This document shows, piece by piece, positions 7,430 through 60,649 of a stretch of DNA of 64,000 nt. The translations under genes and the position numbers were made by a program. Below the pieces are notes generated by a model that saw only the letters and a list, made by a program, of their open reading frames with translations, made no database searches and was not told the origin of the DNA. How positions within the stretch are numbered: position 1 is the first letter of the stretch; each line of letters starts with the position of its first letter. Location of the stretch: positions 234,048 to 298,047 of the forward strand of contig QZKH01000003.1 in NCBI GenBank assembly GCA_003598025.1, written 5' to 3'. The DNA is from Candidatus Omnitrophota bacterium. GTDB lineage: Bacteria > Omnitrophota > Gorgyraeia > Gygaellales > Profunditerraquicolaceae.

Positions 7430-7598
7430 CTACTCCAGCGCGACTGCGCAAATCACAGGCTTCTCTATAATAATATATAATAATATATACAAAAACAAAA
7501 ACCACCCCATTAAAGAATTGTAAAATTCTTTACTTTTCTTAATGTAAATCTTGGGATTTCCTACGAAATGTTAATGTTAGGATTTATGTAAAGAATGA

Positions 7599-7627: not shown

Positions 7628-7635
7628 CTTTTTTT

Positions 7636-9356: not shown

Positions 9357-9357
9357 A

Positions 9358-33597: not shown

Positions 33598-33611
33598 ACT
33601 TATTTTCCCTA

Positions 33612-33640
33612 TTACTGTGAACAATGAACTGTGAACTATT
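33612..33640. repeat. heptamer array (TGAACAA TGAACTG TGAACTA) between acyl-CoA dehydrogenase stop and etfB start
   Basis: 3 units. The acd stop codon TAG (33636-33638, minus strand) lies inside the last unit. Confidence 0.75.
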
Positions 33641-34841: not shown

Positions 34842-35291
34842 TTACAAGTTTTTTATTAGTGCGACCTCTTGGCAATCAGGAAATTTCGGGCAATTAATAC
34901 ATTCAGCCCAAACTTTATGCGGAAGATCTGCATGTTTTATCCTGCGGAAGCCGAACTTTTTAAAAAAATCCGGCTTATAGGTAAGCACAAATAATTTCTT
35001 TGCACCGAGGTCTTTTGCCTCCTCGATACAACTTGCCACCAGCTGTGTACCAATCCCTTTTGATTGGCTCTTTTTTTCAACAGCCAATGACCTAAGTTCA
35101 GCCAGATCCTGCCAGCAGATATGCAGGGCAGAACAACCGATGACCCTACCCCTTTCTTCGATGACAATAAAATCGCGCAGCCTGTCAAAAAGCTCATTTA
35201 AGGAACGCGGAAGCATAAGGTCTTCTTCGGCAAATTTATTTATCAAATTTTGGATTTTCGGTATATCGCTGACTTTGGCTTTACGGATCAT
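34842..35291 (-). CDS. GNAT family N-acetyltransferase (ArgA-like short form) with C-terminal Cys cluster
   Basis: 149 aa. Acetyl-CoA binding motif (LAVEKKSQSKGIGTQLV); C-terminus CINCPKFPDC. Confidence 0.7.
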   Translation of the reverse strand: MIRKAKVSDIPKIQNLINKFAEEDLMLPRSLNELFDRLRDFIVIEERGRVIGCSALHICWQDLAELRSLAVEKKSQSKGIGTQLVASCIEEAKDLGAKKLFVLTYKPDFFKKFGFRRIKHADLPHKVWAECINCPKFPDCQEVALIKNL

Positions 35292-37188: not shown

Positions 37189-38712
37189 TCACTTCCCGAT
37201 TCTTTTCCTCAGCTCGAACCTGTAACTCCATCTGGATTTAGAAATAGGTACCCCAAAAATATTGTTTTGGATACCTATAAACGTGCTCTTAGAAACATTA
37301 TAATTATACTTGAGATGGCTTTTATAATAAGTATATAACGACATGACGCCCACCATTGGCTCAGAAGGGCTTCCGCTGCCATTCCCGGAAAAAACTAAAT
37401 AATCATATATATCAATCCTGTAAGGATGCAGTGAAAAAGTCAGATCATAAGTAGTGTAATCACCTGCCAGCATATACCATAACTCCGGGGCTACCATTAC
37501 ACTGGAGCCGGAAGGGATACTATTTCTTAATATCCGTCTGTTATAATCGTAAGTATCTGCCTTTGTCCAGGTGGCGGGGAGAAGTATGTTCATCCTTATA
37601 AAAGGCAGGCAACCGATAAAAATAAATAAAAGTATAACCCTGATGAATTCTTTTTTAGTGGCGATTTCTTTGTTTGTCAAAAATACGACGGTAGAAATAA
37701 AAAATATTAAGAACGCCTGCGTATACATATGCCTGAGGGTAAAGACAAAAATCAGGATTAGGATAGATATTATCAAGCCTAAGAAAATCGGCAGGTTAAC
37801 TGTGTCTTTATGTTTATTCTTCCGGCTCGTTAAAGACCTGACAGCAATGTAGAAAAGAAATACACTCAACGGCAGGTAAAATAATGTGTCTGCATAACGG
37901 ACATGGGTAATAACCGAATAAGATACTGCCCTGACAAAATCGTCGCTTATAAAAAATAATGCATAACTTAGAGCCTGGCTTAAAATAAGCTTATAATCAA
38001 ACCCGGAAGCTGCAAGCCATGCGAAAAGAGTTAAGAATAATCCGATTAAAATGCTAGCAATTAGCTTGATGAAGCTTTTAATACTATTCCGGCAATAGCC
38101 TAAGAATATACTTGCCGCAAAAAAAATGATTAATAACCCAAGCCAAAAAGAAGTTGCAAGACATAAAAAGGACGACAGTAAAATAAAAATGCTATTCCTG
38201 AAAGAATTAATTTCTTTATATTTAATTGCAAAGTAAACCAATGCCAGCCCAAAAAATACAGCCAGGGTATCAGGTCGCGAAATTCCCTTGATCGCCAAGA
38301 TCCATGAAAAAAATATCAATCCTAATATATATACCGGAGGTTCGTCATCAGCGAAGATTTTAAAAAGTTTATACTGCGCATAGGCAACAAAAAGGCATAT
38401 CAAGAGCGATAATGCTAAACTGGAAGATATTGAAAAACCGAAAATCATAAACCATACTCCATAAATAAACGCATACACGGGAGGATACCACACCGAACAA
38501 TTTTCGACTCCCGGCCTGTAGCCAAAAACCCCCGGAGACGCAAAAGTATGATTTAAGGCAAAATTCCTTGCCGGCTCTTTAAAGATCATTTCGTCTGTAG
38601 AAGGAAAAGGCAGCTTAAATATGTAAAGGTAGAAGCTGATTAAAAACAATAGCAGCCAAAAGATTATTACCCGGTTCTTATGCAACATATTTTTAAGTTC
38701 TGGCAATTGCAT
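37189..38712 (-). CDS. polytopic membrane protein, putative GT-C-fold glycosyltransferase (PMT_2/ArnT-like)
   Basis: 507 aa with more than 10 predicted TMs, a DE motif in the first loop (STDEMIFKEPARN) and an aromatic-rich C-terminal soluble segment. The assignment is tentative. Confidence 0.45.
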   Translation of the reverse strand: MQLPELKNMLHKNRVIIFWLLLFLISFYLYIFKLPFPSTDEMIFKEPARNFALNHTFASPGVFGYRPGVENCSVWYPPVYAFIYGVWFMIFGFSISSSLALSLLICLFVAYAQYKLFKIFADDEPPVYILGLIFFSWILAIKGISRPDTLAVFFGLALVYFAIKYKEINSFRNSIFILLSSFLCLATSFWLGLLIIFFAASIFLGYCRNSIKSFIKLIASILIGLFLTLFAWLAASGFDYKLILSQALSYALFFISDDFVRAVSYSVITHVRYADTLFYLPLSVFLFYIAVRSLTSRKNKHKDTVNLPIFLGLIISILILIFVFTLRHMYTQAFLIFFISTVVFLTNKEIATKKEFIRVILLFIFIGCLPFIRMNILLPATWTKADTYDYNRRILRNSIPSGSSVMVAPELWYMLAGDYTTYDLTFSLHPYRIDIYDYLVFSGNGSGSPSEPMVGVMSLYTYYKSHLKYNYNVSKSTFIGIQNNIFGVPISKSRWSYRFELRKRIGK

Positions 38713-39931: not shown

Positions 39932-40220
39932 CTAGAGGCTGCTTTTGGGCCTCCTGCTTTTCCGTTGCGGGAACCGTATTACTCATTAAAGATTTATTCC
40001 GGTTAGCTGCAAAAAGCGCCAGGCTCAGGCAAGTAATAAAAAACAACACTGATAAAATAGTAGTGACCCGTGTGAGTACTGCCGGGGTCTTCGTCCCGAA
40101 CATTGACTCAACATCAGAAAAGGTATCAACCAAACCTCCACCCCTGCCCCTCTGCACGAGTATTATTATTATTAAAAGTATGCACACGATTACATGTAAT
40201 GCTATTATTAAACCGGTCAT
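39864..40220 (-). CDS. secG: preprotein translocase subunit SecG
   Basis: 118 aa. SecG N-terminal TM with GGG motif (LVQRGRGGGLVDTF) and a Q/E-rich tail. Sits in the conserved tpiA-secG position. Confidence 0.8.
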   Translation of the reverse strand: MTGLIIALHVIVCILLIIIILVQRGRGGGLVDTFSDVESMFGTKTPAVLTRVTTILSVLFFITCLSLALFAANRNKSLMSNTVPATEKQEAQKQPLDADKQGAFNQVAQEQEQDTSVK

Positions 40221-40990
40221 TTTAATACCTCACTTGCTTTTTTTATTATCGAGATAAAGGATTCTATAGAAAGGCTTGCGCCTCCGACTAAGGCACCGTC
40301 GACATCAGGTTTAAGTAGAATCTCGCTTATATTTTCCGGCTTGACGCTGCCTCCATATTGTATTCTAACCTCAGAAGCTACCTCTTCGCTATAAATATCT
40401 TTTATTAAGTCTCTTATATACTTATGGGCCTCCTGGGCCTGTTCAGCAGTAGCAGTTTTACCGGTACCGATAGCCCATACCGGTTCATAAGCTATAATAA
40501 TACCTGCCATCTTATCTGCGCTGATCCCAGAAACCCCATTCGTGATATGGTCATTCAATACCTTAAAAGTCTGACCGCCATCGCGCTCTTTAAGGGTCTC
40601 GCCTACACAAACAATCGGGATTAAACCATGATTAAGCGCAGCTATTATCTTTTTATTTACCGTTAAATTGGTCTCCGCAAAAAACTGCCTTCTTTCAGAA
40701 TGCCCTATTATAACATATTTGCAACCGGCATCTTTAAGCATAACAGGTGATATCTCTCCGGTAAAAGCACCCTGGTCTTCCCAATAAAGATTTTGCGCCC
40801 CTAATTCTATGGGAGAATCGACAATAATTTCTGCTACTTCCGCCAGACTGGTAAATACAGGGCAAATAACTACATCCGTATTCAGGTTTTTTACAGAGAA
40901 TAACTCTCTCTTTAATCCGCTGGCAAGCTCAATTGACTGCCCGATAGTTTTGTTCATTTTCCAGTTTCCAGCAATAATAATTTTTCTCAT
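40217..40990 (-). CDS. tpiA: triose-phosphate isomerase
   Basis: 257 aa with TIM motifs (IIAGNWKMN, VIGHSERR, AYEPVWAIGTG). Confidence 0.95.
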   Translation of the reverse strand: MRKIIIAGNWKMNKTIGQSIELASGLKRELFSVKNLNTDVVICPVFTSLAEVAEIIVDSPIELGAQNLYWEDQGAFTGEISPVMLKDAGCKYVIIGHSERRQFFAETNLTVNKKIIAALNHGLIPIVCVGETLKERDGGQTFKVLNDHITNGVSGISADKMAGIIIAYEPVWAIGTGKTATAEQAQEAHKYIRDLIKDIYSEEVASEVRIQYGGSVKPENISEILLKPDVDGALVGGASLSIESFISIIKKASEVLK

Positions 40991-41004: not shown

Positions 41005-42186
41005 TTATTTATCTGCCAATGCAGCTATTCCGGGTAAAGTTTTTCCCTCCAGATACTCAAGACTTGCCCCGCCTCCTGTTGAAATATGGGACATTTTATC
41101 TTCCAGGTTAAATTTAGCTATGGCTGCAGCCGTGTCCCCTCCTCCGATTATGCTGACAGTATCAAGACCGGCAATAAATTCTGCGACATTTTTTGTTCCT
41201 TTACTGAAAGGCTCCATCTCAAATATACCTAAGGGGCCGTTCCAGACAATAGTTTTCGAAGATTTCAACTGGCTATTAAACAATTCCACTGTCTTTGGAC
41301 CGATATCTACTGCGATCATTCCCTCAGGTATCGACTCACCGACTACCTCAGGCTTGCTAGTTTCATCAATTTTAGCGACTACAATATGGTCAACAGGCAA
41401 TAGTATTTTTTTATTTGCTTCCTTTGCTTTTTCAAGTATAGCTTTAGCGATATCTATTTTGTCCTTCTCAAGCTTAGAATTACCGATCTGAATGCCTTTT
41501 GCCTTAAGAAAGGTATAGCTCATCCCGCCGCCTATGAGTATAATATCGCATTTCGGCAGCAGGTTGTCGATAACCCCTATCTTATCTGAAACTTTTGCTC
41601 CTCCTAAAATAACGGCAAAAGGTTTAGCCGGATTTGCGACTGCTGCGCCAAGGTATTTAATCTCCTTTTCTATTAAAAAACCGGCAACTGACTTTAAATA
41701 ATGCGTAACTCCTTCAGTCGATGCGTGAGCGCGGTGTGCCGTGCCGAAAGCATCATTGACAAACAAATCAGCTGATGATGCCAGTTTCTTTGCAAACTCC
41801 GGGTCATTTCCTTCTTCTTCCTCGTGAAACCGGAGGTTTTCCAATAAGATGACCTTTTCATTTGAGGATTTTATTTTAGACTCTACTTCAGGACCGACGC
41901 AATCATCAAGCATTAATACATTCTGACCAAGCAATTCCTTCAAGCGTAAAGAAACAGGCTTGAGGCTGTATTTAGCGATAACTTTGCCATCCGGACGGCC
42001 TAAGTGGCTCATAAGGATGAGTTTCTTGGCTTTATTAGCTATTATATAATTAATAGTCTCAAGAGTGGCCTTGATCCTGGTATCATCAGTTATCTTAAGA
42101 TCGCTATCTAGCGGGACATTAAAATCAGCCCGCATAAGCACAACCTTGCCATTCAAATCAATGTCTTTAATTGACATTTTATTCAT
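41005..42186 (-). CDS. pgk: phosphoglycerate kinase
   Basis: 393 aa with PGK motifs (RADFNVP, GGGMSYTFL, GGGDT). Confidence 0.95.
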   Translation of the reverse strand: MNKMSIKDIDLNGKVVLMRADFNVPLDSDLKITDDTRIKATLETINYIIANKAKKLILMSHLGRPDGKVIAKYSLKPVSLRLKELLGQNVLMLDDCVGPEVESKIKSSNEKVILLENLRFHEEEEGNDPEFAKKLASSADLFVNDAFGTAHRAHASTEGVTHYLKSVAGFLIEKEIKYLGAAVANPAKPFAVILGGAKVSDKIGVIDNLLPKCDIILIGGGMSYTFLKAKGIQIGNSKLEKDKIDIAKAILEKAKEANKKILLPVDHIVVAKIDETSKPEVVGESIPEGMIAVDIGPKTVELFNSQLKSSKTIVWNGPLGIFEMEPFSKGTKNVAEFIAGLDTVSIIGGGDTAAAIAKFNLEDKMSHISTGGGASLEYLEGKTLPGIAALADK

Positions 42187-42311: not shown

Positions 42312-42406
42312 ATGTGACTTTGTGTCGTGTGTCTTTGCGACTGAATACTTTATCTATTTCTATGAACTATCAACTATGAACCATAAACTATGAACTATGA
42401 ACTAAA
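42312..42406 (+). repeat. family-2 composite repeat plus 6-unit TGAACTA heptamer array
   Basis: tgtgactttgtgtcgtgtgtctttgcgactgaatactttatctatttctatg, followed by TGAACTA TCAACTA TGAACCA TAAACTA TGAACTA TGAACTA (42363-42404). The stop codon of the upstream minus-strand gene (42395-42397) lies inside the array. Confidence 0.8.
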
Positions 42407-44656
42407 ATCCACTTTCTGTCCTATTGGTAAACTTGCGATGAGAAGGCTTGAAAGCTTAAAGAATAGCAAAAATACCAGGCTGTTTATAAGTCCGATTACA
42501 GGAAAAAAGAATATCCCGGCCAAAACCCCCGAAAGACAGCTTCCCAACAGATCTGCGGCATAAAGCAATCCGGCATTGGCAGCTTTGAAGCTGACATTAT
42601 TATTAATCAGCGAATTGGCCAAAACAAATTGAAAACCGACACAAAAACCGGGCAAAGCAAATAAGAATACAAAAAGTATATAATTATTAACAAAGATGAT
42701 ATTTTTATCAAATAAAACTATCAAAGATGAGATTATTGAAATAATCAGCAATTCACCAGATATAAACAGTTTACTAAGCAGTTTTCTTTCCGTTTTAAAT
42801 CTGCCGGCAACCAGGCTTCCCACAGCAGCTCCGGACATAAATATGCTGATAAGAAAACCTATTCTCTGGTAAAGGTAACCGAAATATACCTGAAAAGCAA
42901 ACGAAAGCATAAGCATAACCATCATCCCGAAAAACCCAGTAACAGCAACTGGATAAAAAATCTGGATATCGTTTTTCAGGTAATTTTTTAAACGCAAAAC
43001 CAATATAAAAACAGTGGCAATGATAACAAGAATCAACAACGCCGTTAAATTTATACTCTTTACCTTTTCAAAGATATATTTCATTCCGGATGAATATTTA
43101 TTACTCCATAAACGCATGCTTTCATAAACTGCGACCGGCCTGAGGTCAGTGTTAACTTCTTTTGTTGCATTCTTCAACTGAGCACTAAACCATTCCTGCC
43201 GAGCGGCATCCAATCTGTAATTAAGATAACCTGCATTCAGAAAATCAGTAGTAATCCCCATTTGTTTCATTCTGTTCTCAATTACTTTCGGGTTGAAATT
43301 ATATTTGATAAAGCGCGAATCTGTGCCTATGTATAAATTATAATCTCCGGGAATAACGGAAGTATACGCAAAAACATCTTTGAGGCCGTTAAATATGCAG
43401 GCATTCATATCTTTAAGCTCATTGCCCATATAAGTACTTGACCCTAAAAGGCTAAATACAATTAATCCGCCCCTATTTAATTTCGTTTTTACTAAAGCAA
43501 AAAACTCTTTAGTCAGAAGCCTGTTTGCCGACAAATCAACCGGGCCGCTGACACCAAGAAAAATAATATCAAATTTATCAACTGCCCGTAACAAAAAGAG
43601 CCTTCCATCAATATTACTCAGCCATAATCTTTTATCTGAGAGTTCAAGCAGGCTAAGTTCATCAGGATGCTTCTTGACCATTTCAATCAGTAAAGGATCA
43701 AGCTCGGCATAATCGACTCTATCTACAGGGTATTTAAATATTTCCGATATCACTCCCCCTATCCCGCCGCCGATCACAAGTATCCGCTTAGGGTTATCAC
43801 TTAATAACAAGGGAAAATTTACAAAATCTTCAATTAAATTAGTATCGGGATGCGGCAATATTACTGCCGGAAGGCCATTATAATAAAATACCGTCTGCTT
43901 ATTATCCTTGGTTACTGCGACATTGCCGTATACAGAATTTCTGTTTTCAACCGCCCCCTCCCTGCCAAATCTTATTTTAAGCGAAGACTTTTCCAAATCA
44001 GCCGGCCGGTTAAAAATTATTGTAAATATAAATACTGCGAATATGGAAATAAGTAGAAATTTAGCCCTGCCTGCAGAAAAACTTTTAAGAAAAACAAAGC
44101 CGACGATCGCGCTAGCTAAGGCAACCAAGTAAGCAATCTGAAATGATGAATAATGGGTTACCAGGGCATAAGTAAAAACAAAACCTCCGATTATAGTGCC
44201 CAGCGTTTCTAAGGCATAAATATTTGCGACCGGACTTGCCTTCTTGTCATTTTTTGAAGAGAATAGTGAACAGGCACAGCTGAATAAAGCGCCATGGCTG
44301 GAAGCTATAAGCAGATTCGCCATGAACGATAACAATAGCACTTGCCCTATTCCCAGCGCCTCATAGGGTTTAAGATCAAAAAGAAATTTAAATGTCCTGG
44401 AAAAATATAATGCTGCAGGCAGGCTGGCTGAAAAAATAAGGTTAAGCACAACAAAATATAACCTGGATTTATCCTTGTTACGCCTAAGCAACAGAGAAAA
44501 AATGTAGGCGCCTAAAGATTCAAGGAAAATCCAGCTGGATAATATGGCCCCGATAACAAGCTCATTACCATATGCGCTAAAAGATATCTCCCTCAATAGA
44601 AGGACCTGCGCGATTATGCCGCTTGCTCCCACTAGAACCAGAAAGAATATATTCAT
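42395..44656 (-). CDS. membrane-embedded spermidine-synthase-like (aminopropyltransferase-fold) fusion protein
   Basis: 753 aa. About 7 N-terminal TMs, then a central SpeE-like Rossmann domain (ILVIGGGIGGVISEI...DRVDYAELDP...DIIFLGVSGP), then about 7 C-terminal TMs. Inserted between gap and pgk. Confidence 0.65.
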   Translation of the reverse strand: MNIFFLVLVGASGIIAQVLLLREISFSAYGNELVIGAILSSWIFLESLGAYIFSLLLRRNKDKSRLYFVVLNLIFSASLPAALYFSRTFKFLFDLKPYEALGIGQVLLLSFMANLLIASSHGALFSCACSLFSSKNDKKASPVANIYALETLGTIIGGFVFTYALVTHYSSFQIAYLVALASAIVGFVFLKSFSAGRAKFLLISIFAVFIFTIIFNRPADLEKSSLKIRFGREGAVENRNSVYGNVAVTKDNKQTVFYYNGLPAVILPHPDTNLIEDFVNFPLLLSDNPKRILVIGGGIGGVISEIFKYPVDRVDYAELDPLLIEMVKKHPDELSLLELSDKRLWLSNIDGRLFLLRAVDKFDIIFLGVSGPVDLSANRLLTKEFFALVKTKLNRGGLIVFSLLGSSTYMGNELKDMNACIFNGLKDVFAYTSVIPGDYNLYIGTDSRFIKYNFNPKVIENRMKQMGITTDFLNAGYLNYRLDAARQEWFSAQLKNATKEVNTDLRPVAVYESMRLWSNKYSSGMKYIFEKVKSINLTALLILVIIATVFILVLRLKNYLKNDIQIFYPVAVTGFFGMMVMLMLSFAFQVYFGYLYQRIGFLISIFMSGAAVGSLVAGRFKTERKLLSKLFISGELLIISIISSLIVLFDKNIIFVNNYILFVFLFALPGFCVGFQFVLANSLINNNVSFKAANAGLLYAADLLGSCLSGVLAGIFFFPVIGLINSLVFLLFFKLSSLLIASLPIGQKVDFSS

Positions 44657-44661
44657 TTTAT

Positions 44662-44703
44662 AAAAAATGGGGGGCTTACTCTGTTTCCGTAACGTAAGCC
44701 CCC
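44662..44703 (-). terminator. rho-independent terminator-like hairpin after gap (10-bp GC-rich stem + T5)
   Basis: Minus strand: GGGGGCTTAC-loop-GTAAGCCCCC followed by ATTTTTAT. It leads directly into the ATG of the downstream gene. Confidence 0.5.
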
Positions 44704-44721
44704 GTTAAGAGATCTATACTA

Positions 44722-45756
<1,035 letters not shown>

Positions 45757-45886
45757 TTAATATTGTTAAATATTCCGACTTTACTTTTCCTTAGTTTTTG
45801 GACTATTTAAGTATGTTAATATATTTATCTGTCCCCCTTTCAAAAAAGACTGTAAAATAAATGGATCAAGTTATTTTCAAGCTGGA

Positions 45887-46882
45887 TTAATTCTCTCTTA
45901 GGATTTTTGCAGCAAGTTCCGGCGGCGTTGGCACGACGTAAAAACCTGAGCCCCATTCAAAACCAGCTAACCTGGTTAATTTAGGCATAAACTCTATATG
46001 CCAATGATAGCTGTCATAAACAGTATCTCCGTTAATCGGAGAAGAATGCACTATATAATTATAAGAAATATTTGAAAAAACTTTTTTTAGCTTGGTAACT
46101 GTATCCTTCAGGATTGAAGCTAATTCAGGTATCTCTGCATCTGCCATATGGCAGAACCTGCTATTATGAGCTTTAGGCATAATCCAGATTTCAAAAGGGA
46201 ACCGCGAAACGAACGGGCAAAAAGAAACAAAGTACTTATTCTCTATTATTACCCTTTCTTTTTCCTGAAGCTCCTGCCTGATTACATCACAGAAAATACA
46301 ACGGTCTCTATAGTCATAATAGTTCTTTGAACCCTTCAGCTCTTCTACCGCACTCTTGGGGACCATAGGAAGAGCGATAATCTGGGAATGCGGGTGCTCA
46401 AGAGAGGCGCCTGCTGCAGGGCCAAAATTTTTGAATATCATTATATATTTGAACCTGTGGTCCCGGGCTAAATCCCTTGCACGGGAGCAAGACATCGAGA
46501 TATAGCTTTCAATTTCGCTGTTAAGAAGACTGGGGATATCCTTATAATGGTAGGGGCTTTCAATCAATATTTCATGAGCGCCAACACCATTTGACATATC
46601 ATAAATGCCTACGCCTCTGCGGTCTAAATCACCTTCAATCTGTAAAGCCGGAAATTTATTAGGAACTACCCTTACTTGCCAGCCGGGAGAATTAGGTGAA
46701 GACCCATCGATCCTGACGGCATCGATCTCAGGCGGAGTCAGCTTTTCGTTACCATAGCAAAAAGGACAAATCCCGCCCTTAAAAGCATGCTGCTCATATT
46801 CAAAATCCGCAGGCAAGGCCGGATGGTCAGTATCAACAATTACCCATCTGCCGCCAATAGGATCCCTTCGTAACTCTGACAT
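45887..46882 (-). CDS. galactose-1-phosphate uridylyltransferase family protein (HIT-like, canonical HPH active site)
   Basis: 331 aa. Has the Zn motif CPFCYGNE and the nucleophile motif LEHPHSQII. This is GalT class I / ADP-glucose phosphorylase-like. Confidence 0.8.
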   Translation of the reverse strand: MSELRRDPIGGRWVIVDTDHPALPADFEYEQHAFKGGICPFCYGNEKLTPPEIDAVRIDGSSPNSPGWQVRVVPNKFPALQIEGDLDRRGVGIYDMSNGVGAHEILIESPYHYKDIPSLLNSEIESYISMSCSRARDLARDHRFKYIMIFKNFGPAAGASLEHPHSQIIALPMVPKSAVEELKGSKNYYDYRDRCIFCDVIRQELQEKERVIIENKYFVSFCPFVSRFPFEIWIMPKAHNSRFCHMADAEIPELASILKDTVTKLKKVFSNISYNYIVHSSPINGDTVYDSYHWHIEFMPKLTRLAGFEWGSGFYVVPTPPELAAKILREN

Positions 46883-46884
46883 AT

Positions 46885-47913
46885 CTATACCTCAACCTCT
46901 CTTAAATATTTAGCTGAATCTTCAGGCGATAAAGGACATATATAAAAACCTGTACCCCATTCAAAACCTGCTACCTTTGTTAGGCGCGGGATTATTTCGA
47001 TGTGCCAGTGATAATCATTATCAATGCTTTTCCAGTAACCAGACTTAGGCCTTCTAAACGGCGCAGTGTGTAAAACATAATTATAAGAAATATCATTAAG
47101 GCCTACCTTGATTTTTTGAAGTATCTTTTTCATAACTTTGGCAAGGTATAACCTATGTTCCGGCTCGATGTTGACAAAATCGCAGGAATGCTTCTTTGGC
47201 AAAATCCATACTTCAAAAGGAAACCTCGCCGCAAACGGCGTAATGGCAATAAACCCGTCTATATCAAGGATAACTCTTTCTTTAGATGACATCTCCTGGT
47301 TGATTAAATCACAAAAAATACACCTTTCATGGTATTCATAATAAAGCCTTGCGCCTTTAAGCTCTTCTTTGACTCTTTTTGGGTTAACAGGTGTTGCAAT
47401 AAGCTGGGAACGCGAATGTTTTAGCTTGCTGCCCCCGGCAGACCAGCCGTAATTCTTAAAAACTAAAACGTATTTAAAACGCTCATCCTTTTCCAGATCC
47501 CTTATGCGGTCAACATAACAGGCCAGTACCTTGGATATTTGCTGTTCTTCTAGATCAGCCATGTTAGCTATATGCTTATTCGTCTCGACAACGATTTCGT
47601 GCGCACCGATGCCGCTCATAAGATCATACAAGCCCCTGCCATGCCGGTCAAGCTGACCTTCAATCCTTAAAAATGGGGCAATACTCGGGACAACCCTGAG
47701 TTCCCATCCGGGGCTGTTTTTCGCAGAACCGGTTGGCCTGACAGCATATATTTCAGGGGGAGTTTGGGATTCATGCCCCTGGCAGAAAGGGCACGAAGGA
47801 GCTTCCTCCTGTCCATTCGTGGGGGCAATACCGAATTGATCTGGCCTGCGCAACCGCTCAGTTGCTACAATAACCCACCTGCCTATAATCGGATCTTTTC
47901 GTAATTCTGGCAT
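46885..47913 (-). CDS. GalT-family paralog with substituted active site (HSR instead of HPH)
   Basis: 342 aa, collinear with the downstream paralog. CPFCQGHE is retained, but the nucleophile motif reads LKHSRSQLI. Confidence 0.75.
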   Translation of the reverse strand: MPELRKDPIIGRWVIVATERLRRPDQFGIAPTNGQEEAPSCPFCQGHESQTPPEIYAVRPTGSAKNSPGWELRVVPSIAPFLRIEGQLDRHGRGLYDLMSGIGAHEIVVETNKHIANMADLEEQQISKVLACYVDRIRDLEKDERFKYVLVFKNYGWSAGGSKLKHSRSQLIATPVNPKRVKEELKGARLYYEYHERCIFCDLINQEMSSKERVILDIDGFIAITPFAARFPFEVWILPKKHSCDFVNIEPEHRLYLAKVMKKILQKIKVGLNDISYNYVLHTAPFRRPKSGYWKSIDNDYHWHIEIIPRLTKVAGFEWGTGFYICPLSPEDSAKYLREVEV

Positions 47914-48013
47914 ATTTTATAAATATGTTTCTTGATTAATCTTGTTGAAAGATTGGGATACACATATCGCTGCATAACTATCCCGGAGTTTCCAATTATA
48001 CCATCATATTGGC

Positions 48014-48976
48014 CTAATGCAAACAATTTTTAAAAACATCGCCGAGAATAACCTTATGCCCTGCAATAAAATCACCGGCCTTCATTGCTTTTTTATTCTC
48101 TGCCTGCAGTTCTTTTATGGTCACTGCTCCGTCGCCTGTTTTAACGACTATCCCTGCCTTAGATACTTCCAGTATCTGACCGGGTTTATATCCGCTGCCA
48201 AAACTATCATTAACTAACTCTAATTCTAGTATCCTCAGTAATTTTCCATTCAAATAAGAATAGCTGCCGGGCCAACCCAAACAGCCCCTGACATGGTTAA
48301 TAATGGCCCTGGAATGCTTACTCCATTCTATAAGCCCGTCTTCTTTCTTGAGTTTACGCGCATATGTAACTTTAGATTCTTCCTGAGGAATCAAGGTATA
48401 TTTACCGCTTGGAATTGAGCTTAAAACTTTAATGACTAATTCTGCGGATAATTCTGAAAGTTTCTCTGCCAAAGTAACGGCCGTATCGCTTTCGTTGATC
48501 TGAATAGACTTTTGGCAAATAACAGGCCCGGCATCCATTTTAGTGTTAATTTTAATAGCCGAAACTCCAGTATATTTTTCGCCGTTAATCAACGCCCAAT
48601 TAACCGGAGCAGCACCCCTGTATTTAGGGAGGAGAGAAGCGTGCATATTAAATGCCATAATTTTTGCGGTTTTTATCACAGCAGAAGAAAGAATCTGGCC
48701 ATATGCAATAACTACAAGCAGGTCCGGATCTATTTTTTTTAATGTTACTAGACTGACAGAATCGTTTATATCCTGCGGTTGATAGGTCTTGATCCCTAAA
48801 TCCTGGCATAGCTTCTTGACTGGAGTAGCGCAAATTTGCCTGCCTCTTCCCTTAGCTCTGTCGGGCTGAGTAAACACGCAAGCCACGTTATAACCGTTAT
48901 CGAAAATAGCCTTTAACGGCTTTACGGCAAACTCAGAACTGCCTAAGAAAACAATATTCATCTTTCTCTTATCCAT
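48014..48976 (-). CDS. fmt: methionyl-tRNA formyltransferase
   Basis: 320 aa with a formyltransferase N-domain (NIVFLGSSEFAV; HASLLPKYRGAAPVNWA) and a C-terminal tRNA-binding domain. Confidence 0.93.
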   Translation of the reverse strand: MDKRKMNIVFLGSSEFAVKPLKAIFDNGYNVACVFTQPDRAKGRGRQICATPVKKLCQDLGIKTYQPQDINDSVSLVTLKKIDPDLLVVIAYGQILSSAVIKTAKIMAFNMHASLLPKYRGAAPVNWALINGEKYTGVSAIKINTKMDAGPVICQKSIQINESDTAVTLAEKLSELSAELVIKVLSSIPSGKYTLIPQEESKVTYARKLKKEDGLIEWSKHSRAIINHVRGCLGWPGSYSYLNGKLLRILELELVNDSFGSGYKPGQILEVSKAGIVVKTGDGAVTIKELQAENKKAMKAGDFIAGHKVILGDVFKNCLH

Positions 48977-48979
48977 ATT

Positions 48980-50827
48980 CTAAACCGGGTCCATGTCTAT
49001 GGTTATTATTATACCTGAATGAGAAACTTTTTTTAAGCATCTTTTTATCAAGGCAGACATCGCCAATGGCCTGCTTCCTTTTGTAACTATATTCCAGTAG
49101 AAATTGCCCCTTATCTTAAATGGCTGCGCCTGCTTTAACGATAACACCTCTAAGCTTCTGCCATCAGTTTCTTTGGTAATAACCTCAAAAAACCGGTTAG
49201 CGCAATCAGAGACTTTATTTTCATCGGGGGAACGTAATTTTATTACAGCTAAATGCTTATAAGGCGGAAACCCCAGCTGTTTTCTGAAATCCATCTCAGG
49301 TAAGATAAACTCTTCGGGATTATTATTTTTTAAAGACTTAAAAACATAATGTCCCGGCATAGAAGTTTGGATGATCATTTTAGCCGTGCACAAATTTAGC
49401 AGCCCCCGCAATAATAATAATGTTTTTTCTGCAGAGCGGAAATCTATCCTGCTTAACATGCTATCAATATTTAACACACATACCAAGTCAAATTTTTTGC
49501 TGTCTAAGCTTAAAATATTTTTATTTGCGATAACAATGTCTGCATAGCTTGAGCCTGCTTCTTGTGCATGCTCAAGCTTTACGATCCTGGCTCTGGGAAA
49601 AAGCCTGTATATCTGGCTTTCTACTTTTTCAATGCCTATGCCTTCATATCTTATGTAATCCGAGTTGCATTGAGGGCAAAGCCTAGGAGCGGCGATACTA
49701 TAATTACAATAGCTGCAGCTTAAGATGTTTTTCTCGTAGTAATATACCAGGTTTACGCTGCACCTCGGGCACTCAAGCTCATAGCCGCACTTTAAACAAC
49801 TTCCATAAGATGCAAAACCTTTCTTATCAAAATATACCAGCACGCTGCCTTTGTTGCTTAGAGTCGAATCAATTACTCCTTGTAAGTACCTGGAAATCTG
49901 CTCTGTTTTCTTCGTGTTACCCTTAAAATAAGTCCTATCGTCTAAGATGAAGATATCCCTGACAGCCTGCTCAACGGCAACTTCATTAAAATCAATATTC
50001 TTATCTCTACTTAACAAAACTGTTTCGAGTGGCCTTGCTACTGAGCCCAAAATCAAACTTGTGCCATTTAATTTTGCCCTCATAATTGCCACCTGGCGTC
50101 CGCTATAATGAGGCACCTGATCCTGCTTATACACATAGTCAGTTTCTTCATCAATTATAATCAATCCTTGATTTTGAAGTGGCGCAAATACCGCGGAACG
50201 CGTTCCTACGATAATATTTACTTCTCTATTCCTGATCTTCAGCCATTCCCGAAGCTCTGATGGGCTTTTTCTAAACAATGTTGAAATCACGGCATTAGGT
50301 ATTTCCGCAGCCCTCTCTTTGAACCTGGCGACCTTTAAAATATCCGGCAGCAAAATCAATGCCTGCTTACCTAAATCAATACATTTTCTTAACTCATTTA
50401 AATAAAAATCCCAGCGCCCCTGTCGATCTGCGTTAATCAATGAAGTGATACTGGCCCTTGAGGTTTTAGGCAGATTTTCCTGAGCCTTTCCCAACTCAAG
50501 CCCTTTCTTGCAGCTTCTTGACTGCCAAGGCAAAGCTGTATCAATAACCTCACCCCACGAACAACAGTAATACTGCGATACCAATTTTGTAAGCCGTAAT
50601 AATTCCTTGCTTAATATAGGGGCATCATCAAGCAAACTTATTATAGGTTTAACGTTCTTTATTGAACTTTGTTTTGATACCCCGACAATATAACCGACGC
50701 ATTTCCTGGCTCCGAATGTAACTAACGCCCTCATGCCTGGGACAACACGGGGCACGAATGCAGCCGGAACCGAATAATCAAATGGACCGTCAACCGGAAT
50801 AGGTATTACTATTTTAACGTATAACAT
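48980..50827 (-). CDS. priA: primosomal protein N' (PriA) with degenerate helicase motifs I/III/VI
   Basis: 615 aa. Has the PriA 3'BD N-terminus, DEET Walker B (IIIDEETDYVYKQDQ) and a Cys-rich zinc-binding region (CLKCG...CPRC...CSYC...CPQC). The Walker A position reads ADRQGRWDFYL instead of GxxGSGKTEVYL. Confidence 0.8.
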   Translation of the reverse strand: MLYVKIVIPIPVDGPFDYSVPAAFVPRVVPGMRALVTFGARKCVGYIVGVSKQSSIKNVKPIISLLDDAPILSKELLRLTKLVSQYYCCSWGEVIDTALPWQSRSCKKGLELGKAQENLPKTSRASITSLINADRQGRWDFYLNELRKCIDLGKQALILLPDILKVARFKERAAEIPNAVISTLFRKSPSELREWLKIRNREVNIIVGTRSAVFAPLQNQGLIIIDEETDYVYKQDQVPHYSGRQVAIMRAKLNGTSLILGSVARPLETVLLSRDKNIDFNEVAVEQAVRDIFILDDRTYFKGNTKKTEQISRYLQGVIDSTLSNKGSVLVYFDKKGFASYGSCLKCGYELECPRCSVNLVYYYEKNILSCSYCNYSIAAPRLCPQCNSDYIRYEGIGIEKVESQIYRLFPRARIVKLEHAQEAGSSYADIVIANKNILSLDSKKFDLVCVLNIDSMLSRIDFRSAEKTLLLLRGLLNLCTAKMIIQTSMPGHYVFKSLKNNNPEEFILPEMDFRKQLGFPPYKHLAVIKLRSPDENKVSDCANRFFEVITKETDGRSLEVLSLKQAQPFKIRGNFYWNIVTKGSRPLAMSALIKRCLKKVSHSGIIITIDMDPV

Positions 50828-51910: not shown

Positions 51911-52453
51911 CTAATTCCTTAAGATGAACCTTGAGGCTTCGTAGAGGTTTTTGAATACAAAATCGGGCTTGACCTGCCAATTCTCGCTGTTAATAAGATT
52001 TTCCTGCCCGGTAAGCACTAGTATGGATGTGCACCCTGAGGATCGAGCAGCCAGAATATCTTTCATGCTATCACCTATGAAATAACTCTTGCTTAGATTA
52101 ATGTTGAATTCTTTCGCTGCTTTTTTTAGGCTGCCAATTTTGGGCTTCCGGCAAGAACAGTCTTCCTCAGGCAAATGGAAACAATAATAAACACGGTCGA
52201 TATCGCCACCGTAAGACCTTATCTCCTCAATCATCTTAGAGGTTATTAAATCTAAATCGGCTTTATCCAGTAAACCTTTGCCAACGCAAGCCTGGTTTGA
52301 GATTATAAAAATCTTAAACCCTGATTTCTTAAGATCGGCGATTGCCTTTTTCACATTGGGAAGAAATTTAAATCCTTTTATGCTCGTTACGTATTTCCCG
52401 TACCCGGGGAACTTATTAATAACGCCGTCCCGGTCAAGAAAAATAGCTCTCAT
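51911..52453 (-). CDS. gmhB: D-glycero-D-manno-heptose 1,7-bisphosphate phosphatase
   Basis: 180 aa HAD-IIIA member with FLDRDGVIN and a Zn-binding CxHx...CxC (CFHLPEEDCSCRKP). Confidence 0.88.
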   Translation of the reverse strand: MRAIFLDRDGVINKFPGYGKYVTSIKGFKFLPNVKKAIADLKKSGFKIFIISNQACVGKGLLDKADLDLITSKMIEEIRSYGGDIDRVYYCFHLPEEDCSCRKPKIGSLKKAAKEFNINLSKSYFIGDSMKDILAARSSGCTSILVLTGQENLINSENWQVKPDFVFKNLYEASRFILRN

Positions 52454-53477
52454 TATCTTTTACCCAATCTATAAGCTTGTTTATGCCGCTTTTGACTGAA
52501 ACTTTTGTATCCCATTTAAGTTCTTTCTTCACTTTTGCGGTATCAGTTATATAAACCTTCTGGTCTGATGGCCTCCAATCGGAAAATTCTGTCTTTGGCC
52601 TTTTGCCGGTAGCACTTTCAAGCTGGTCTAAGAATTCCAGGAGCGATATTGTATTATCGGGACCGCCGCCTATGTTAAACAGCCCTCTTTCTAAATCACT
52701 GTTTATGAATTTATTGAACGCATCAACAAGATCATCTACATACAGCATATCCCGGACCTGTTTACCGTTACCATAAATAGTAATTGGCTTATTGAATAAA
52801 GCAGCGATTATAAACCAGGCAACCCATCCCTGGTCCTCAAAACCGAACTGCCTTGTGCCATATGTACAAGACATGCGGAAAACCGCTGTTTTCATCTTAT
52901 AAATATGGCTATATTCCTGTACATAAAGGTCACCCACAAGCTTAGATACTCCGTAAGGTGTATGCCCCGTAAGGTCCGTAGACATGCTTTCATTGACTCC
53001 TACGACACCGTCATAAATGTATCTTTTCTCCTTTTCAATTAAGGCGATCTTATCAACGTTTTCGCCAAATGTTTTATTGGTTGAGCAATAGACAATAACC
53101 GTATCTTTGGATTTAGCCCTTGCTGCTTCAAGGACATTAAGGGTCCCAAAAGCATTGATGCTAAAATCTTCTTTAGGCATACGCACGCTAGAAGGAACTC
53201 CGGGCTGGCCTGCAGTATGTATTACCACATCAACTCCTTTACCTATTGCCTTTGCCACATCCTTCTCATCCCTGACATCCCCTTTTATAAGTTCAATATT
53301 CTTGAATTGCTGTAAATATTTCCAGTTAAATTCAACCGAATTCTTATCATAACCGAATATTTTAGAACGCATGAGATTATCAAGGACAATAACTTTATTT
53401 TTTGAATTTTGCTTTGAAAAAAACTCCGCACAGTGACTACCCACAAGCCCTGCCCCTCCGGTGACCAATACTCTCAT
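52434..53477 (-). CDS. NAD-dependent sugar-nucleotide epimerase/dehydratase (SDR family)
   Basis: 347 aa with VLVTGGAGLVGSH Rossmann and YxxxK catalytic motifs. CDP-paratose-epimerase-like. Confidence 0.8.
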   Translation of the reverse strand: MRVLVTGGAGLVGSHCAEFFSKQNSKNKVIVLDNLMRSKIFGYDKNSVEFNWKYLQQFKNIELIKGDVRDEKDVAKAIGKGVDVVIHTAGQPGVPSSVRMPKEDFSINAFGTLNVLEAARAKSKDTVIVYCSTNKTFGENVDKIALIEKEKRYIYDGVVGVNESMSTDLTGHTPYGVSKLVGDLYVQEYSHIYKMKTAVFRMSCTYGTRQFGFEDQGWVAWFIIAALFNKPITIYGNGKQVRDMLYVDDLVDAFNKFINSDLERGLFNIGGGPDNTISLLEFLDQLESATGKRPKTEFSDWRPSDQKVYITDTAKVKKELKWDTKVSVKSGINKLIDWVKDNESYFS

Positions 53478-54244
53478 TTCCTTAATCTCCTTTCAGTGAT
53501 TATTTCACGATATTTCAAATAACTTAAGAATTGATATAATGCCGCATTGAAAGCGATCATAAAGCCGATAAAACCGTCTTTATAACCCCTTCTAGTAAAA
53601 TAAGTGCGCATAAACCTGTCATAGCTCCTCCAGAGAAACCTGCCCAGGCGCATAGGCTTGTTTTGCGTAAGCCATTTTCGCGCTTCCCAGCTTGTTTGTT
53701 TATTCAGCTTAGTTATAAAATCTTCAAGGTTTCTATATGAATAATGAATAAGATCTGAATGAAGATGGCCGCAAGCGCCGTCCATAAAAGCCCGGGGATG
53801 CACTGCTGCTTCTTCATATCTGAATTTACTCTTCCTGAATAATTTAAGCTGCCCGCTAGGGTACCACCCCCCATACCTGACCCAGTAATTTCCTATATAA
53901 TTCCTCCTAGGAACAGTAAAACCGTTCTCTTTAGGGTTATCGGACAATTTTTGGGCTATTTCATTTTTTAGCTCGGATGTGACTATTTCATCTGCATCAA
54001 GGCTTAAGACCCATTCATTAGCAGCTTTTGAATAAGCCCAATTCCTATGCGCGCCCTCAACTTCCATTTTCCTAATAAAGATTTTGTCCGTGTACTTGGC
54101 AGCGATTTCTCTGGTATGATCAGTACTCTGGTCATCAACAATGATTATCTCATCAGCCCAAAACACCGAATCAAGGCACCTGGACAATCGCTCTTGTTCA
54201 TTTCTTGTTATCACAACCACAGAAAGCCTGACCTTATCAGTCAT
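53474..54244 (-). CDS. glycosyltransferase family 2
   Basis: 256 aa with a GT-A fold (LSVVVITRNEQERL...DAD motif). Confidence 0.8.
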   Translation of the reverse strand: MTDKVRLSVVVITRNEQERLSRCLDSVFWADEIIIVDDQSTDHTREIAAKYTDKIFIRKMEVEGAHRNWAYSKAANEWVLSLDADEIVTSELKNEIAQKLSDNPKENGFTVPRRNYIGNYWVRYGGWYPSGQLKLFRKSKFRYEEAAVHPRAFMDGACGHLHSDLIHYSYRNLEDFITKLNKQTSWEARKWLTQNKPMRLGRFLWRSYDRFMRTYFTRRGYKDGFIGFMIAFNAALYQFLSYLKYREIITERRLRK

Positions 54245-55359
54245 TAAACAATATCCTTGATTATTCCTGTTACGAATTTAATCTGCTCCTCAGTTATATA
54301 CGGGAACATCGGCAGCGATAATATTTCGTCGCATACTTTCTCAGCAACGGCAAAATCACCTTTCTTATATTTCAAGTGAGCATAAGCCTTTTGTAAATGC
54401 AGCGGTATAGGATAATGAATGATGCTGGAGACGCCTGCATCAGAAAGCGCCCTGTGTATCTGATCTCTCTTTGCCGATCTGATAGCATAAACATGATAGA
54501 TATGTTTTACAGAAGGCAGAGATACTGGGCAAACCACATTTTTGGCACTATTTAATTGGCTGTCATATATTTTAGCAGCTTCCTGCCGAAGGTTGTTCCA
54601 TTTATCAATTCTTTTTAATTTTATCCTAAGCAGCGCTGCCTGGATAGTATCAAGCCTGGAATTGTATCCAATCATGGCATGCTCATATTTGGATATCCTG
54701 CCATAATCTCTTAACATGCATAACTTATCAAATACAGCCTTATTTTTCGTAACCACCATGCCTCCGTCACCCATTGCGCCGAGATTCTTAGAAGGATAAA
54801 AACTGAAACAACCGACATCGCCAATCTCTCCGGCAAACATGCGCCTGCCTTCCGGCATGGTTATACTGGCACCGTGTGCCTGAGCAGCATCCTCAATGAC
54901 TTTTAAATTATGTTTATTGGCCAGTTGCATTATTTTAGGCATATTTGCCGGCTGCCCGTAAAGATGCACTACCATTATCGCCTTTGTTTTACGGGTTATC
55001 GCTTTTTCAATCTTGTTTACATCTATATTATATGTTGCCTCATCGATATCGACAAAAACAGGCTTTGCCCCCGTATAACTTACAGCTAAAGCCGAAGCAA
55101 TAAATGTAAAAGCCGGAACAATAACTTCATCGAGCTGGCCGATATCCAAGCCTTTGAGAGCAAGAAATAAAGCAGCGGTACCTGAGCTCACGCCTAAAGC
55201 GTATGGGCAATTGCAAAAAGCAGCGAATTCCTTTTCGAACTCAACTAAATCCTGGCCCAGGATAAAATCACCCCTGTTGATAACCTTCTCTATCGCCAGA
55301 GATAATTCCCTTTTAATCTCTTCATGCTGTTTACTTAAATCGCAGAATGGTACATTCAC
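54244..55359 (-). CDS. DegT/DnrJ/EryC1/StrS family PLP-dependent sugar aminotransferase
   Basis: 371 aa with a GTG start. Characteristic motifs include SFYPSKNLGAMGDGG. Confidence 0.9.
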   Translation of the reverse strand: MNVPFCDLSKQHEEIKRELSLAIEKVINRGDFILGQDLVEFEKEFAAFCNCPYALGVSSGTAALFLALKGLDIGQLDEVIVPAFTFIASALAVSYTGAKPVFVDIDEATYNIDVNKIEKAITRKTKAIMVVHLYGQPANMPKIMQLANKHNLKVIEDAAQAHGASITMPEGRRMFAGEIGDVGCFSFYPSKNLGAMGDGGMVVTKNKAVFDKLCMLRDYGRISKYEHAMIGYNSRLDTIQAALLRIKLKRIDKWNNLRQEAAKIYDSQLNSAKNVVCPVSLPSVKHIYHVYAIRSAKRDQIHRALSDAGVSSIIHYPIPLHLQKAYAHLKYKKGDFAVAEKVCDEILSLPMFPYITEEQIKFVTGIIKDIV

Positions 55360-56444
55360 ATCAGCCTCCTTACGGCATCAAAAACCTGGTCCACCTGGAT
55401 TGAATCAATGCACTCCTTGCTATGAACGCAATGAGCAAGCTTAAAATCCTTATAACATGGCCGGCAATCCAACTGGCGCTTCAATACTATATGTTCATCG
55501 TTTTTTGGATATGGTCCATAAACAACTTCACTTACCGGGCCAAAGATAGATACTGTCCTGATGTCTAAAGCAACCGCAATATGCAAAGGCCCGCCATCAT
55601 TAGTAACTAAAACCCTGCACCTCTTCAACAATGCCGGAAGATCGGTTAAGCTTACTATGCCCGTAATATCCAAAGCTTTATTACGCATACATGAAAGCAC
55701 CCCGGAAGTAATATCCTTCTCTTCCCGGCTTGCAACAATTATAACCTTAATATTAAATTGGTCAATAATTCTATCTGCCAGCTCTGCAAATTTCTCTGCA
55801 GGCCAGTGTTTTATATACGCATCCTTGCCCCAGCTCTGTCCGGCACCCGGGACTATGCCGATGACTGCTTCATCCGGCCCTATACCGTGGTTTAAAAGCA
55901 GAGAATCGATATTTTGCCGGCTTTCTTTGTTTATCTCCAGGCTCATCCTTTTATCCATAATTTCAATTCCGGATTCTCTGGCTAAATCTATATAATATTC
56001 CACCATATGCTTTTCATTGTAACCTTCAATATCCAAAGAGCGTGTAAAAAAACCCCTTTTCCTCTTAAAGTTATACCCTATTCTCTGCTTTATGTTCATC
56101 AATTTGGCGATTAGGCTGTATCTGTAGTCCAGAGAATAATCAATACAGGTATCGAATTTATATTTTTTTAACGCGCCGATCAAGCTGAATAATTTCTTTA
56201 TGCCAGCCAAAGGGGATTCTTTAAAAATCCTCTTAAGATCGCCTCTATTTAAATCAATTACTGCATCCAAATAAGGATTGGTTTTCAACAGTGCGCCTAC
56301 TCTCTGGTTGCACCAGTAGCCGATAAAACTCTCAGGATATTTCTCCTTTATCCCTTTTAAAACCGGCGTGGTAAATAAAACATCTCCGATACCGAAAGGA
56401 TTTATTATAAGGAATCTCCTGGTATTACCTTTTGAAGTCGTCAT
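55356..56444 (-). CDS. glycosyltransferase family 9 (ADP-heptose:LPS heptosyltransferase-like)
   Basis: GT9 motifs: N-terminal INPFGIGDVLFTTP and C-terminal NDGGPLHIAVAL. Confidence 0.85.
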   Translation of the reverse strand: MTTSKGNTRRFLIINPFGIGDVLFTTPVLKGIKEKYPESFIGYWCNQRVGALLKTNPYLDAVIDLNRGDLKRIFKESPLAGIKKLFSLIGALKKYKFDTCIDYSLDYRYSLIAKLMNIKQRIGYNFKRKRGFFTRSLDIEGYNEKHMVEYYIDLARESGIEIMDKRMSLEINKESRQNIDSLLLNHGIGPDEAVIGIVPGAGQSWGKDAYIKHWPAEKFAELADRIIDQFNIKVIIVASREEKDITSGVLSCMRNKALDITGIVSLTDLPALLKRCRVLVTNDGGPLHIAVALDIRTVSIFGPVSEVVYGPYPKNDEHIVLKRQLDCRPCYKDFKLAHCVHSKECIDSIQVDQVFDAVRRLM

Positions 56445-60648: not shown

Positions 60649-60649
60649 T

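Follow-up and report, generated by a model that had tools for sequence, protein, structure and literature searches.

According to published descriptions, class I galactose-1-phosphate uridylyltransferases (GalTs) form homodimers whose two active sites are equivalent and lie between the subunits; human GALT, the enzyme affected in galactosemia, is among them. In both these enzymes and the plant ADP-glucose phosphorylase At5g18200, the pocket is described as strictly dependent on the neighbouring subunit for its completion (bioRxiv 10.64898/2026.09.13.751320). In Escherichia coli GalT, residues N77/D78, S161, H164, H166 and Q168 act in cis, and R28, R31 and the 311-323 loop are supplied in trans. 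R28/R31 (human R48/R51) touch UDP-glucose at its hexose-1-phosphate moiety, and Arg48 and Gln188 of human GALT lie on opposite chains (PMC5081055); a simulation gave stable intersubunit hydrogen bonds ARG48A-PHE99B and ARG51A-ASP98B, with uridine monophosphate contacting Asn97, Asp98 and His186 (PMC8513022). Because these published contacts fall on opposite chains, the arginines of the RxxR motif and the C-terminal loop can be assigned to the trans half of the site and the Asn loop, Ser, His and Gln to the cis half. Here, we describe two adjacent genes of this family, termed B and A in their order of transcription, in a 64,000-nucleotide stretch of the genome of an uncultured Candidatus Omnitrophota bacterium (contig QZKH01000003.1; 'the window' means the whole of this stretch). 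B has lost the catalytic nucleophile and A the two trans-acting arginines, and we propose that their products probably form an obligate heterodimeric class I GalT-type nucleotidyltransferase, most likely an ADP-glucose phosphorylase (ADP-glucose:phosphate adenylyltransferase).

The pair and its immediate surroundings comprise the following features.

46885-47913, minus strand: gene B, 342 residues, a GalT-like/ADP-glucose-phosphorylase-like paralog without the nucleophile (H166-S-R168-S-Q170)
45887-46882, minus strand: gene A, 331 residues, the catalytic paralog with an intact cis site (H163-P-H165-S-Q167)
46883-46898, minus strand: B/A junction, with the B stop codon TAG at 46887-46885, a 2-nucleotide spacer and the A start codon ATG at 46882, as read from the sequence
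47914-48023, minus strand: fmt-B intergenic region, with one sigma-70-like match (TTTGCA-17-TATAAT, extended TG, at 48023-47995), a consensus match only

A sequence-only reading of this DNA had reported two head-to-tail GalT-family genes of 331 and 342 residues, one keeping the HPH motif (LEHPHSQII) and the other reading LKHSRSQLI; the open reading frames (ORFs) lie exactly at the coordinates it gave, both on the minus strand, and their translations agree with both motifs. The two proteins are 48% identical over their full length (pairwise alignment, E = 8e-120), both score above the Pfam gathering thresholds of PF01087 and PF02744, and their family-model matches place both in the two-repeat HIT half-barrel fold of the class I GalT branch (IPR001937). 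A GAGG Shine-Dalgarno-like element lies 7 nucleotides upstream of the ATG of A, within the 3' end of B, and this layout would be compatible with translational coupling. Counts in a promoter and terminator scan did not rise above those in shuffled sequence, no terminator was found between A and gap, and an Rfam scan of 44000-49500 gave no match.

Active-site residues of the two copies

The H-x-H-x-Q motif of class I GalTs is present in A and absent from B. Of the 120 sequences most similar to B (71-94% identity, chiefly from Omnitrophota metagenome-assembled genomes), 108 have H-x-R and 12 have H-x-K, so that every one carries Arg or Lys at the nucleophile position; all 120 of the closest homologs of A have H-x-H. 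Three independent alignments set Arg168 of B on the nucleophile column: to copy A, to At5g18200 (MSHSHSQMM) and, through a profile, to E. coli GalT (H164-P-H166-G-Q168). No alternative His occupies that position, and the earlier statement that the nucleophile of B is replaced holds, as does the statement that its CxxC zinc site is kept. The predicted structural zinc ligands are 99-100% conserved in both clades (C41, C44, H114 and H166 in B; C39, C42, H112 and H163 in A), and the second metal site of B (C198, C201, H242, H302 and H304) is present and conserved to the same degree.

Column-by-column comparison of 121 B, 121 A and 94 canonical sequences, the last including At5g18200, revealed further changes around the pocket of B. 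The nucleophile column holds Arg168 in 91% of B sequences and otherwise Lys. Ser77 (100%) replaces the ribose-binding Asn of the N-(K/D)-F loop, with Ile78 and Phe81 (canonical Ala) nearby, Asn112 stands in place of a canonical Pro, and the Ser-bearing turn ahead of the motif has become Gly/Ser162 with an inserted Arg/Lys163 (K163 in the window copy) and Lys165. The N-terminal R20-x-x-R23 is retained (Arg20 in 100%, Arg23 in 98%), as is the C-terminal AGFEWGTGFY loop. Judged from these residues, B is a member of the family by descent and fold and not a catalytic member.

The losses in A fall elsewhere. Its cis site is intact (N75-K-F, S160 and H163-P-H165-S-Q167) and both metal sites are kept, but both arginines of the N-terminal S-P-x-R-A-K-R-P motif are gone, replaced by His20 in 97% of A sequences and by Lys or Leu at position 23 (His20/Leu23 in the window copy); the distal part of the C-terminal loop is also less conserved. 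That A, too, is degenerate in its two trans-acting arginines had been overlooked in the sequence-only reading. In a profile alignment, the two N-terminal arginine positions of A and B correspond to E. coli R28/R31 (human R48/R51), and Ser77 of B corresponds to E. coli N77. Scored element by element against the canonical consensus, the two copies matched as follows.

Trans N-terminal motif: A 0.35, B 0.99
Trans C-terminal loop: A 0.73, B 0.90
Cis nucleotide loop: A 0.96, B 0.70
Cis His133 region: A 0.97, B 0.76
Catalytic loop: A 0.91, B 0.85
Both metal sites: A about 1.0, B about 1.0

Since B has lost cis residues and A has lost trans residues, an A:B dimer would contain one site with all of the canonical residues and one site degenerate on both sides. 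An A:A dimer would be without the trans arginines in both of its sites and a B:B dimer without the nucleophile in both. In the proposed heterodimer, the cis chain would contribute the zinc-held H-x-H-x-Q loop with the nucleophile His, the Ser on the alpha-phosphate and the Asn-(Asp/Lys)-Phe nucleotide loop, and the trans chain would contribute the two N-terminal arginines and the C-terminal loop, which hold the sugar-1-phosphate. Site 1 would be complete, with N75, S160, H163, H165 and Q167 from A and R20, R23 and the AGFEWGTGFY loop from B, and would run the normal ping-pong reaction via an adenylyl-His165 intermediate. Site 2, with S77, G/S162, the extra K/R163, K165 and R168 from B and H20 and L23 from A, would be dead for nucleotidyl transfer, and may either only support the fold or have turned into a basic ligand-binding pocket. 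B would then be a non-catalytic partner supplying the trans half of the active site of A. Such a pair probably arose by duplication of a gene for a homodimeric enzyme followed by complementary loss, which would be tolerated while one site works and would lock the two genes together.

A model of B calculated with AlphaFold2 has a predicted local distance difference test score (pLDDT) of 89.5 and a predicted template-modelling score (pTM) of 0.90. It is poorly defined only at the loop after RxxR (residues 21-40) and at the trans loop (315-319), which would fit segments that become ordered only against a dimer partner. A Foldseek search with this model placed At5g18200 (PDB codes 1Z84, 2H39 and 1ZWJ) at the top, with target-normalised template-modelling (TM) scores of 0.88-0.92 and 36-37% identity, followed by the E. 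coli, Pyrobaculum and human GalTs; 1Z84, 1HXP and 5IN3 were matched at TM scores of 0.8-0.9.

Conservation of the pair and its recurrences

A scan over one genome per GTDB species returned 47 loci. Wherever an Omnitrophota locus leaves room on the contig (21 of 21), B is followed directly by A on the same strand and then by gap, down to B orthologs of 57% identity. The pair is therefore conserved as a pair in related genomes, which removes the concern, raised in the sequence-only reading, that it might be unique to this assembly. The wider conserved order is priA-fmt-B-A-gap-(speE-like)-pgk-tpiA-secG, with the downstream neighbours in the window at the following positions.

44722-45741, minus strand: gap, conserved downstream neighbour
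42395-44656, minus strand: membrane-fused spermidine-synthase-like gene, 753 residues, multi-pass with a central spermidine-synthase domain, between gap and pgk
41005-42186, minus strand: pgk, conserved downstream neighbour
40217-40990, minus strand: tpiA, conserved downstream neighbour, with secG next

The spermidine-synthase-like membrane gene is the variable member, being present in L001, L004 and L008 and absent from L006, L007, L010 and L017. In 16 of 19 genome pairs the B protein resembles its window counterpart more closely than the A protein does, and mean pairwise identity is 0.80 within the B clade versus 0.78 within the A clade. By these comparisons B is under selection, at least as conserved as A, and is not decaying. 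The duplication itself is old, given that A and B are only 48% identical.

The complementary pattern is found in every tandem pair of the scan. Eighteen single-copy genes, all from non-Omnitrophota loci, are canonical at all of R, R, N, S, H, H and Q; the single-copy loci L019, L027 and L039 are not canonical. A second type of pair occurs in L030 and L032-L035 (metagenome-assembled genomes named Avigastranaerophilus, Riflebacteria and rumen bacteria; about 4990-8015 in each) with the opposite gene order. Here, the upstream copy has lost the trans arginines (QT, N, HPHSQ), and the downstream copy keeps them with Asn changed to Asp and Gln to His (RR, D, HAHSH). Because both copies lie outside the Omnitrophota A/B clade, this second type represents convergence. 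Both of its copies retain the nucleophile, so that the degenerate partner may still be partly active. The neighbours of the pair in L033 and L034 were uninformative (ffh, an M42 peptidase and ORFs without a Pfam match).

A third case is provided by a second syntenic slot in relatives from Omnitrophota, PGM-acyltransferase-S1-tyrS-[X]-gap-pgk-tpiA-secG, in which X takes three states. In the first it is a single canonical gene (P0486; L050/L051, 5001-6002). In the second it is a split pair, B'/A' (L052, 4055-5996), the first gene of which (313 residues) keeps QRAKRP and AGFEWGTGFYINP and is without the CxxC motif, the NKFPAL loop and HxH. In the third it is a fused B'-A' protein of 596-599 residues (P0121, P0391 and P0392; L048, 6001-7791; L049, 6001-7800), represented by three clusters that are 52-56% identical among themselves. 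The N-terminal half of the fusion keeps ERAKRP and AGFEWGTGxYINP but has lost HxH and about 55 residues that include the zinc CxxC and the NKFPAL nucleotide loop; in the C-terminal half the RxxR segment is entirely absent, CPFC, VPNKFPAL and HPHTQ are kept and the C-terminal loop is decaying. On this evidence the fusion represents the final stage of this division of labour, with both partners joined at an orthologous locus, and the single, split and fused genes in one slot of Omnitrophota-like genomes form a complete evolutionary series. In a bootstrapped neighbour-joining tree, the A'-type proteins and fused C-terminal halves are sister to the canonical single genes (97%), and these together are sister to window-type A (89%); from this branching the trans arginines were lost at least twice within the group of A, A' and canonical genes. 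An AlphaFold2 model of the natural fusion P0121 (pLDDT 70.7, pTM 0.70, with only three homologs of the N-terminal half in the alignment) lends weak support to a packed pseudo-dimer.

The sequence-only reading had suggested either an active/inactive heterodimer or a neofunctionalised paralog. Complementary loss, adjacency, recurrence and fusion together strongly support the former, and it is from them that we infer the physical pairing of the two chains. If so, the locus would be a natural separation of the cis and trans halves of an active site onto two genes, amounting to a genetic dissection of the interface in which the R28/R31 equivalents and the C-terminal loop act in trans and Asn, Ser, His and Gln in cis. 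It would also offer a clean and repeated example of duplication and complementary loss locking in a heterodimer, with single, split and fused stages at one locus. As a separate observation, one family member (P0152, 871 residues) consists of two complete tandem GalT-like copies, both with HxHSQ, after a low-complexity N-terminus of 140 residues, and appears eukaryote-like in composition.

Substrate and competing explanations

Both copies are much closer to At5g18200 (1Z84; E = 1e-64 for A and 3.6e-72 for B) than to E. coli GalT (8e-27 and 3.7e-18). The sequence-only reading had noted that some relatives act as ADP-glucose phosphorylases, and At5g18200 is indeed the closest solved structure for both. 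The same reading had placed the pair close to glgC. A true glgC is present in the window, but at some distance, and the conserved neighbours of the pair are gap, pgk and tpiA.

35288-36517, minus strand: glgC (TIGR02091, 486 bits against a cut-off of 425), about 9.4 kb and eight genes downstream of the pair

The true GlgC shows that ADP-glucose, on which the closest characterised relative acts, is made by this organism. Neither galK nor galM was found among the scanned ORFs, which take in most, though not the whole, of the window, and the single epimerase belongs to a glycosylation cluster; the association with galK, galE and galM expected of a Leloir enzyme is not seen, the conserved neighbours being fmt, priA, gap, pgk and tpiA. 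Some canonical relatives have genes for GH57 proteins (L021 and L025), glgA (L036, L037, L042 and L043) or glgC (L047, where the genes overlap) as immediate neighbours, and others occur as fusions to a starch synthase of the GlgA type (P0154) or to GH57 (P0176 and P0203). The relatives with such neighbours come from Planctomycetota, Myxococcota/Deltaproteobacteria and Aminicenantes. On the basis of the closest relative, the glg context and GlgC, we favour the reaction ADP-glucose + Pi -> glucose-1-phosphate + ADP, or its reverse. Asn334, which is 95% conserved in canonical members, is replaced in both copies, by Val in A and Cys in B, so that their substrate may differ from that of the canonical members. 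GlgC and the GalT-like enzyme of the L047 type would together give ATP + Pi -> ADP + PPi; to extend this net reaction to the window pair, and to read its position ahead of gap-pgk-tpiA as a link to glycolytic flux, is speculation. In public databases proteins of the A and B types are named galactose-1-phosphate uridylyltransferase, a label at odds with this context of ADP-glucose and alpha-glucan metabolism.

Several points weigh against a strict heterodimer or against its assigned substrate. The loss is not perfectly symmetric: the C-terminal trans loop of A is still largely conserved (AGFEWG[ST]GFY), and position 23 is Lys in many A orthologs, a residue that could do part of the work of Arg, so that an A homodimer might keep some activity. 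The conservation of the pocket in B is not what would be expected of a mere relic, and B may do more than serve as a scaffold. About 20 of 150 family representatives are degenerate in cis and trans alike and do not fit the simple model; they keep all metal ligands (P0124, P0132, P0140, P0149, P0171, P0202, P0206, P0267 and others, and locus L039), and the N-terminal alignment of these sequences is uncertain, so that part of the pattern may be misalignment. The neighbour-joining trees support shallow clades well and deep nodes poorly, and B' with the fused N-terminal halves forms a long branch, so that window-type B and the deletion-type B' may have arisen once or separately. The fusion model, at a pLDDT of 70.7, is only moderately confident. 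As to the substrate, the assignment draws on about 37-40% identity to one characterised plant enzyme and on gene context, and A exceeds the cut-off of the NCBIfam galT equivalog TIGR00209.

The altered pocket of B may have acquired a role of its own, as an allosteric or sensor site for phosphate, pyrophosphate or a sugar phosphate. This would refine the heterodimer and not replace it, and we hold it only tentatively, as somewhat unlikely. The pocket keeps its zinc site and Gln and adds the basic residues R/K163, K165 and R168, at 90-100% conservation; H166, S169 and Q170 are invariant (100%) in the window-type lineage, and the R/K163 insertion and K165 are conserved. B also carries a specific eight-residue insertion, K290-x-G-Y-W-K-S-I297, strongly conserved ahead of the H-W-H motif, evolves no faster than A and belongs to an operon tied to gap-pgk-tpiA, a setting in which the levels of phosphate and ADP are important. 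The non-catalytic subunits of ADP-glucose pyrophosphorylases suggest a possible analogy. However, the second Omnitrophota lineage has deleted this pocket from both the split pair and the fusions, so that the core function does not require it; the Asn that binds ribose is gone, and a ligand cannot be deduced from sequence. Conservation of the pocket could reflect either the structural needs of the zinc site and the interface or a ligand-binding, regulatory role. A still broader suggestion, which we advance as an unlikely one, is that the GalT/ADP-glucose-phosphorylase fold is predisposed to catalytic/non-catalytic splitting, repeated in bacteria, and that the window-type B pocket is a basic, zinc-anchored sensor of phosphate, pyrophosphate or sugar phosphate gating ADP-glucose phosphorolysis. 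With GlgC this could give a two-enzyme ATP + Pi -> ADP + PPi cycle or a glycogen-independent ADP-glucose valve, tied in its transcription to the lower-glycolysis genes gap-pgk-tpiA.

That the pair encodes a true Leloir GalT (UDP-glucose:galactose-1-phosphate uridylyltransferase), heterodimeric or not, we consider improbable. It would agree with the public annotation and with the score of A against TIGR00209 (136.6 bits against a cut-off of 102.1), but B falls short of the same model (98.3 bits) and both fall far short of the PRK11720 equivalog (138 bits for A and 120.7 for B, cut-off 448). The kinship of both with ADP-glucose phosphorylase rather than with E. coli or human GalT, the failure to find galK or galM among the scanned ORFs, and the clustering or fusion of relatives with glgA, glgC and GH57 also speak against it.

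It is very unlikely that B is an independent, neofunctionalised homodimer in which Arg/Lys168 takes part in new chemistry, such as single-displacement transfer or hydrolysis of another nucleotide substrate, with A acting separately. In favour of this, B is highly conserved, is confidently folded in the model and retains both metal sites, the Gln and both trans elements, and the Lys found at position 168 in some orthologs can in principle be a nucleophile. Nevertheless, the interchange of Arg and Lys indicates a role for charge and not for a nucleophile, and the Asn that binds the nucleotide ribose is lost as well. Independence would also leave unexplained why, in three separate lineages, the trans arginines missing from A are precisely those retained by B, why A and B never occur apart in Omnitrophota, and why there are B-A fusions whose B half is devoid of the entire cis site.

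A dying enzyme gene classically shows itself first through loss of its catalytic nucleophile, but a recent duplication with B as a decaying copy without function is scarcely credible and was rejected, given an intact B ORF, H-x-R/K in 120 of 120 close homologs, B orthologs down to 57% identity that always lie beside A, the greater conservation of B in 16 of 19 genome pairs and the age implied by 48% identity between the copies. The heterodimer with a single working site is the reading that we retain, and under it metabolic reconstructions of Omnitrophota should not count both genes of the pair as enzymes.

The wider window and comparison with known systems

Several other features of the window deserve mention. 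A long same-strand glycosylation cluster (51911-61345, minus strand) lies upstream of priA and includes genes for a HAD phosphatase, an NAD epimerase/dehydratase, several GT2 glycosyltransferases, a DegT aminotransferase, two GT9 heptosyltransferases, ManC and an O-antigen-ligase-like Wzy_C protein. A GT28 gene resembling monogalactosyldiacylglycerol (MGDG) synthase adjoins priA, and the part of the cluster with MGDG synthase, HAD, epimerase and GT2 genes is syntenic across Omnitrophota loci. At 31592-34787 (minus strand) are genes for an acyl-CoA dehydrogenase, electron-transfer flavoprotein (ETF) beta and ETF-alpha with an N-terminal 2x[4Fe-4S] ferredoxin domain, a layout that resembles electron-bifurcating Bcd/Etf systems. 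The match to Mfd at 10253-12193 (minus strand) covers only model positions 294-821 of 907, with overlapping ORFs downstream at 9358-10290 and 8403-9470, and this mfd gene may be split or frameshifted. Two large minus-strand ORFs stand out for a want of family matches: one at 37189-38712 (507 residues) with no Pfam or NCBIfam match and one at 61342-63504 (720 residues) with no Pfam match.

In the literature searched, no description was found of a natural GalT-like heterodimer, of a HIT pseudoenzyme partner or of a bacterial ADP-glucose phosphorylase. The one match to a bacterial 'ADP-glucose phosphorylase' proved to be a misapplication of the term to GlgC, and a 2024 review of prokaryotic alpha-glucan enzymes makes no mention of such an enzyme.

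Of the characterised proteins, At5g18200 (1Z84, 1ZWJ and 2H39) is the nearest, at about 36-40% identity, and has the same two-repeat HIT half-barrel, both metal sites, the HxHxQ motif (kept in A) and the RAKRP and GFExGTG motifs. It is, however, a homodimer with two identical sites, whereas the two genes of the window have diverged, B having lost the nucleophile and A the trans arginines. The E. coli and human GalTs (1HXP/1HXQ/1GUP and 5IN3) share the family, the architecture and an active site common to two subunits, but are only about 21-22% identical, are homodimers and use a UDP-hexose substrate. Mixed dimers of wild-type and mutant GALT are known from patients.

Two unrelated systems show a similar logic. 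In ADP-glucose pyrophosphorylase pairs, such as GlgC/GlgD of Firmicutes and the small and large subunits of plants, a catalytic paralog is accompanied by a non-catalytic and possibly regulatory one. Pairs of the GlgC/GlgD type thus resemble A and B as a duplicated sugar-nucleotide enzyme with one catalytic paralog and an adjacently encoded, non-catalytic partner; they differ in having an unrelated fold (a nucleotidyltransferase with a beta-helix) and sites that are not composite across subunits, and in showing no cis/trans loss. Heterodimeric ABC transporters possess two head-to-tail composite sites, one of which may, after duplication, keep every consensus residue while the other has lost residues on both chains. 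Those with one degenerate site follow the same logic as that proposed for A:B, in a protein family and with a chemistry that are entirely different.

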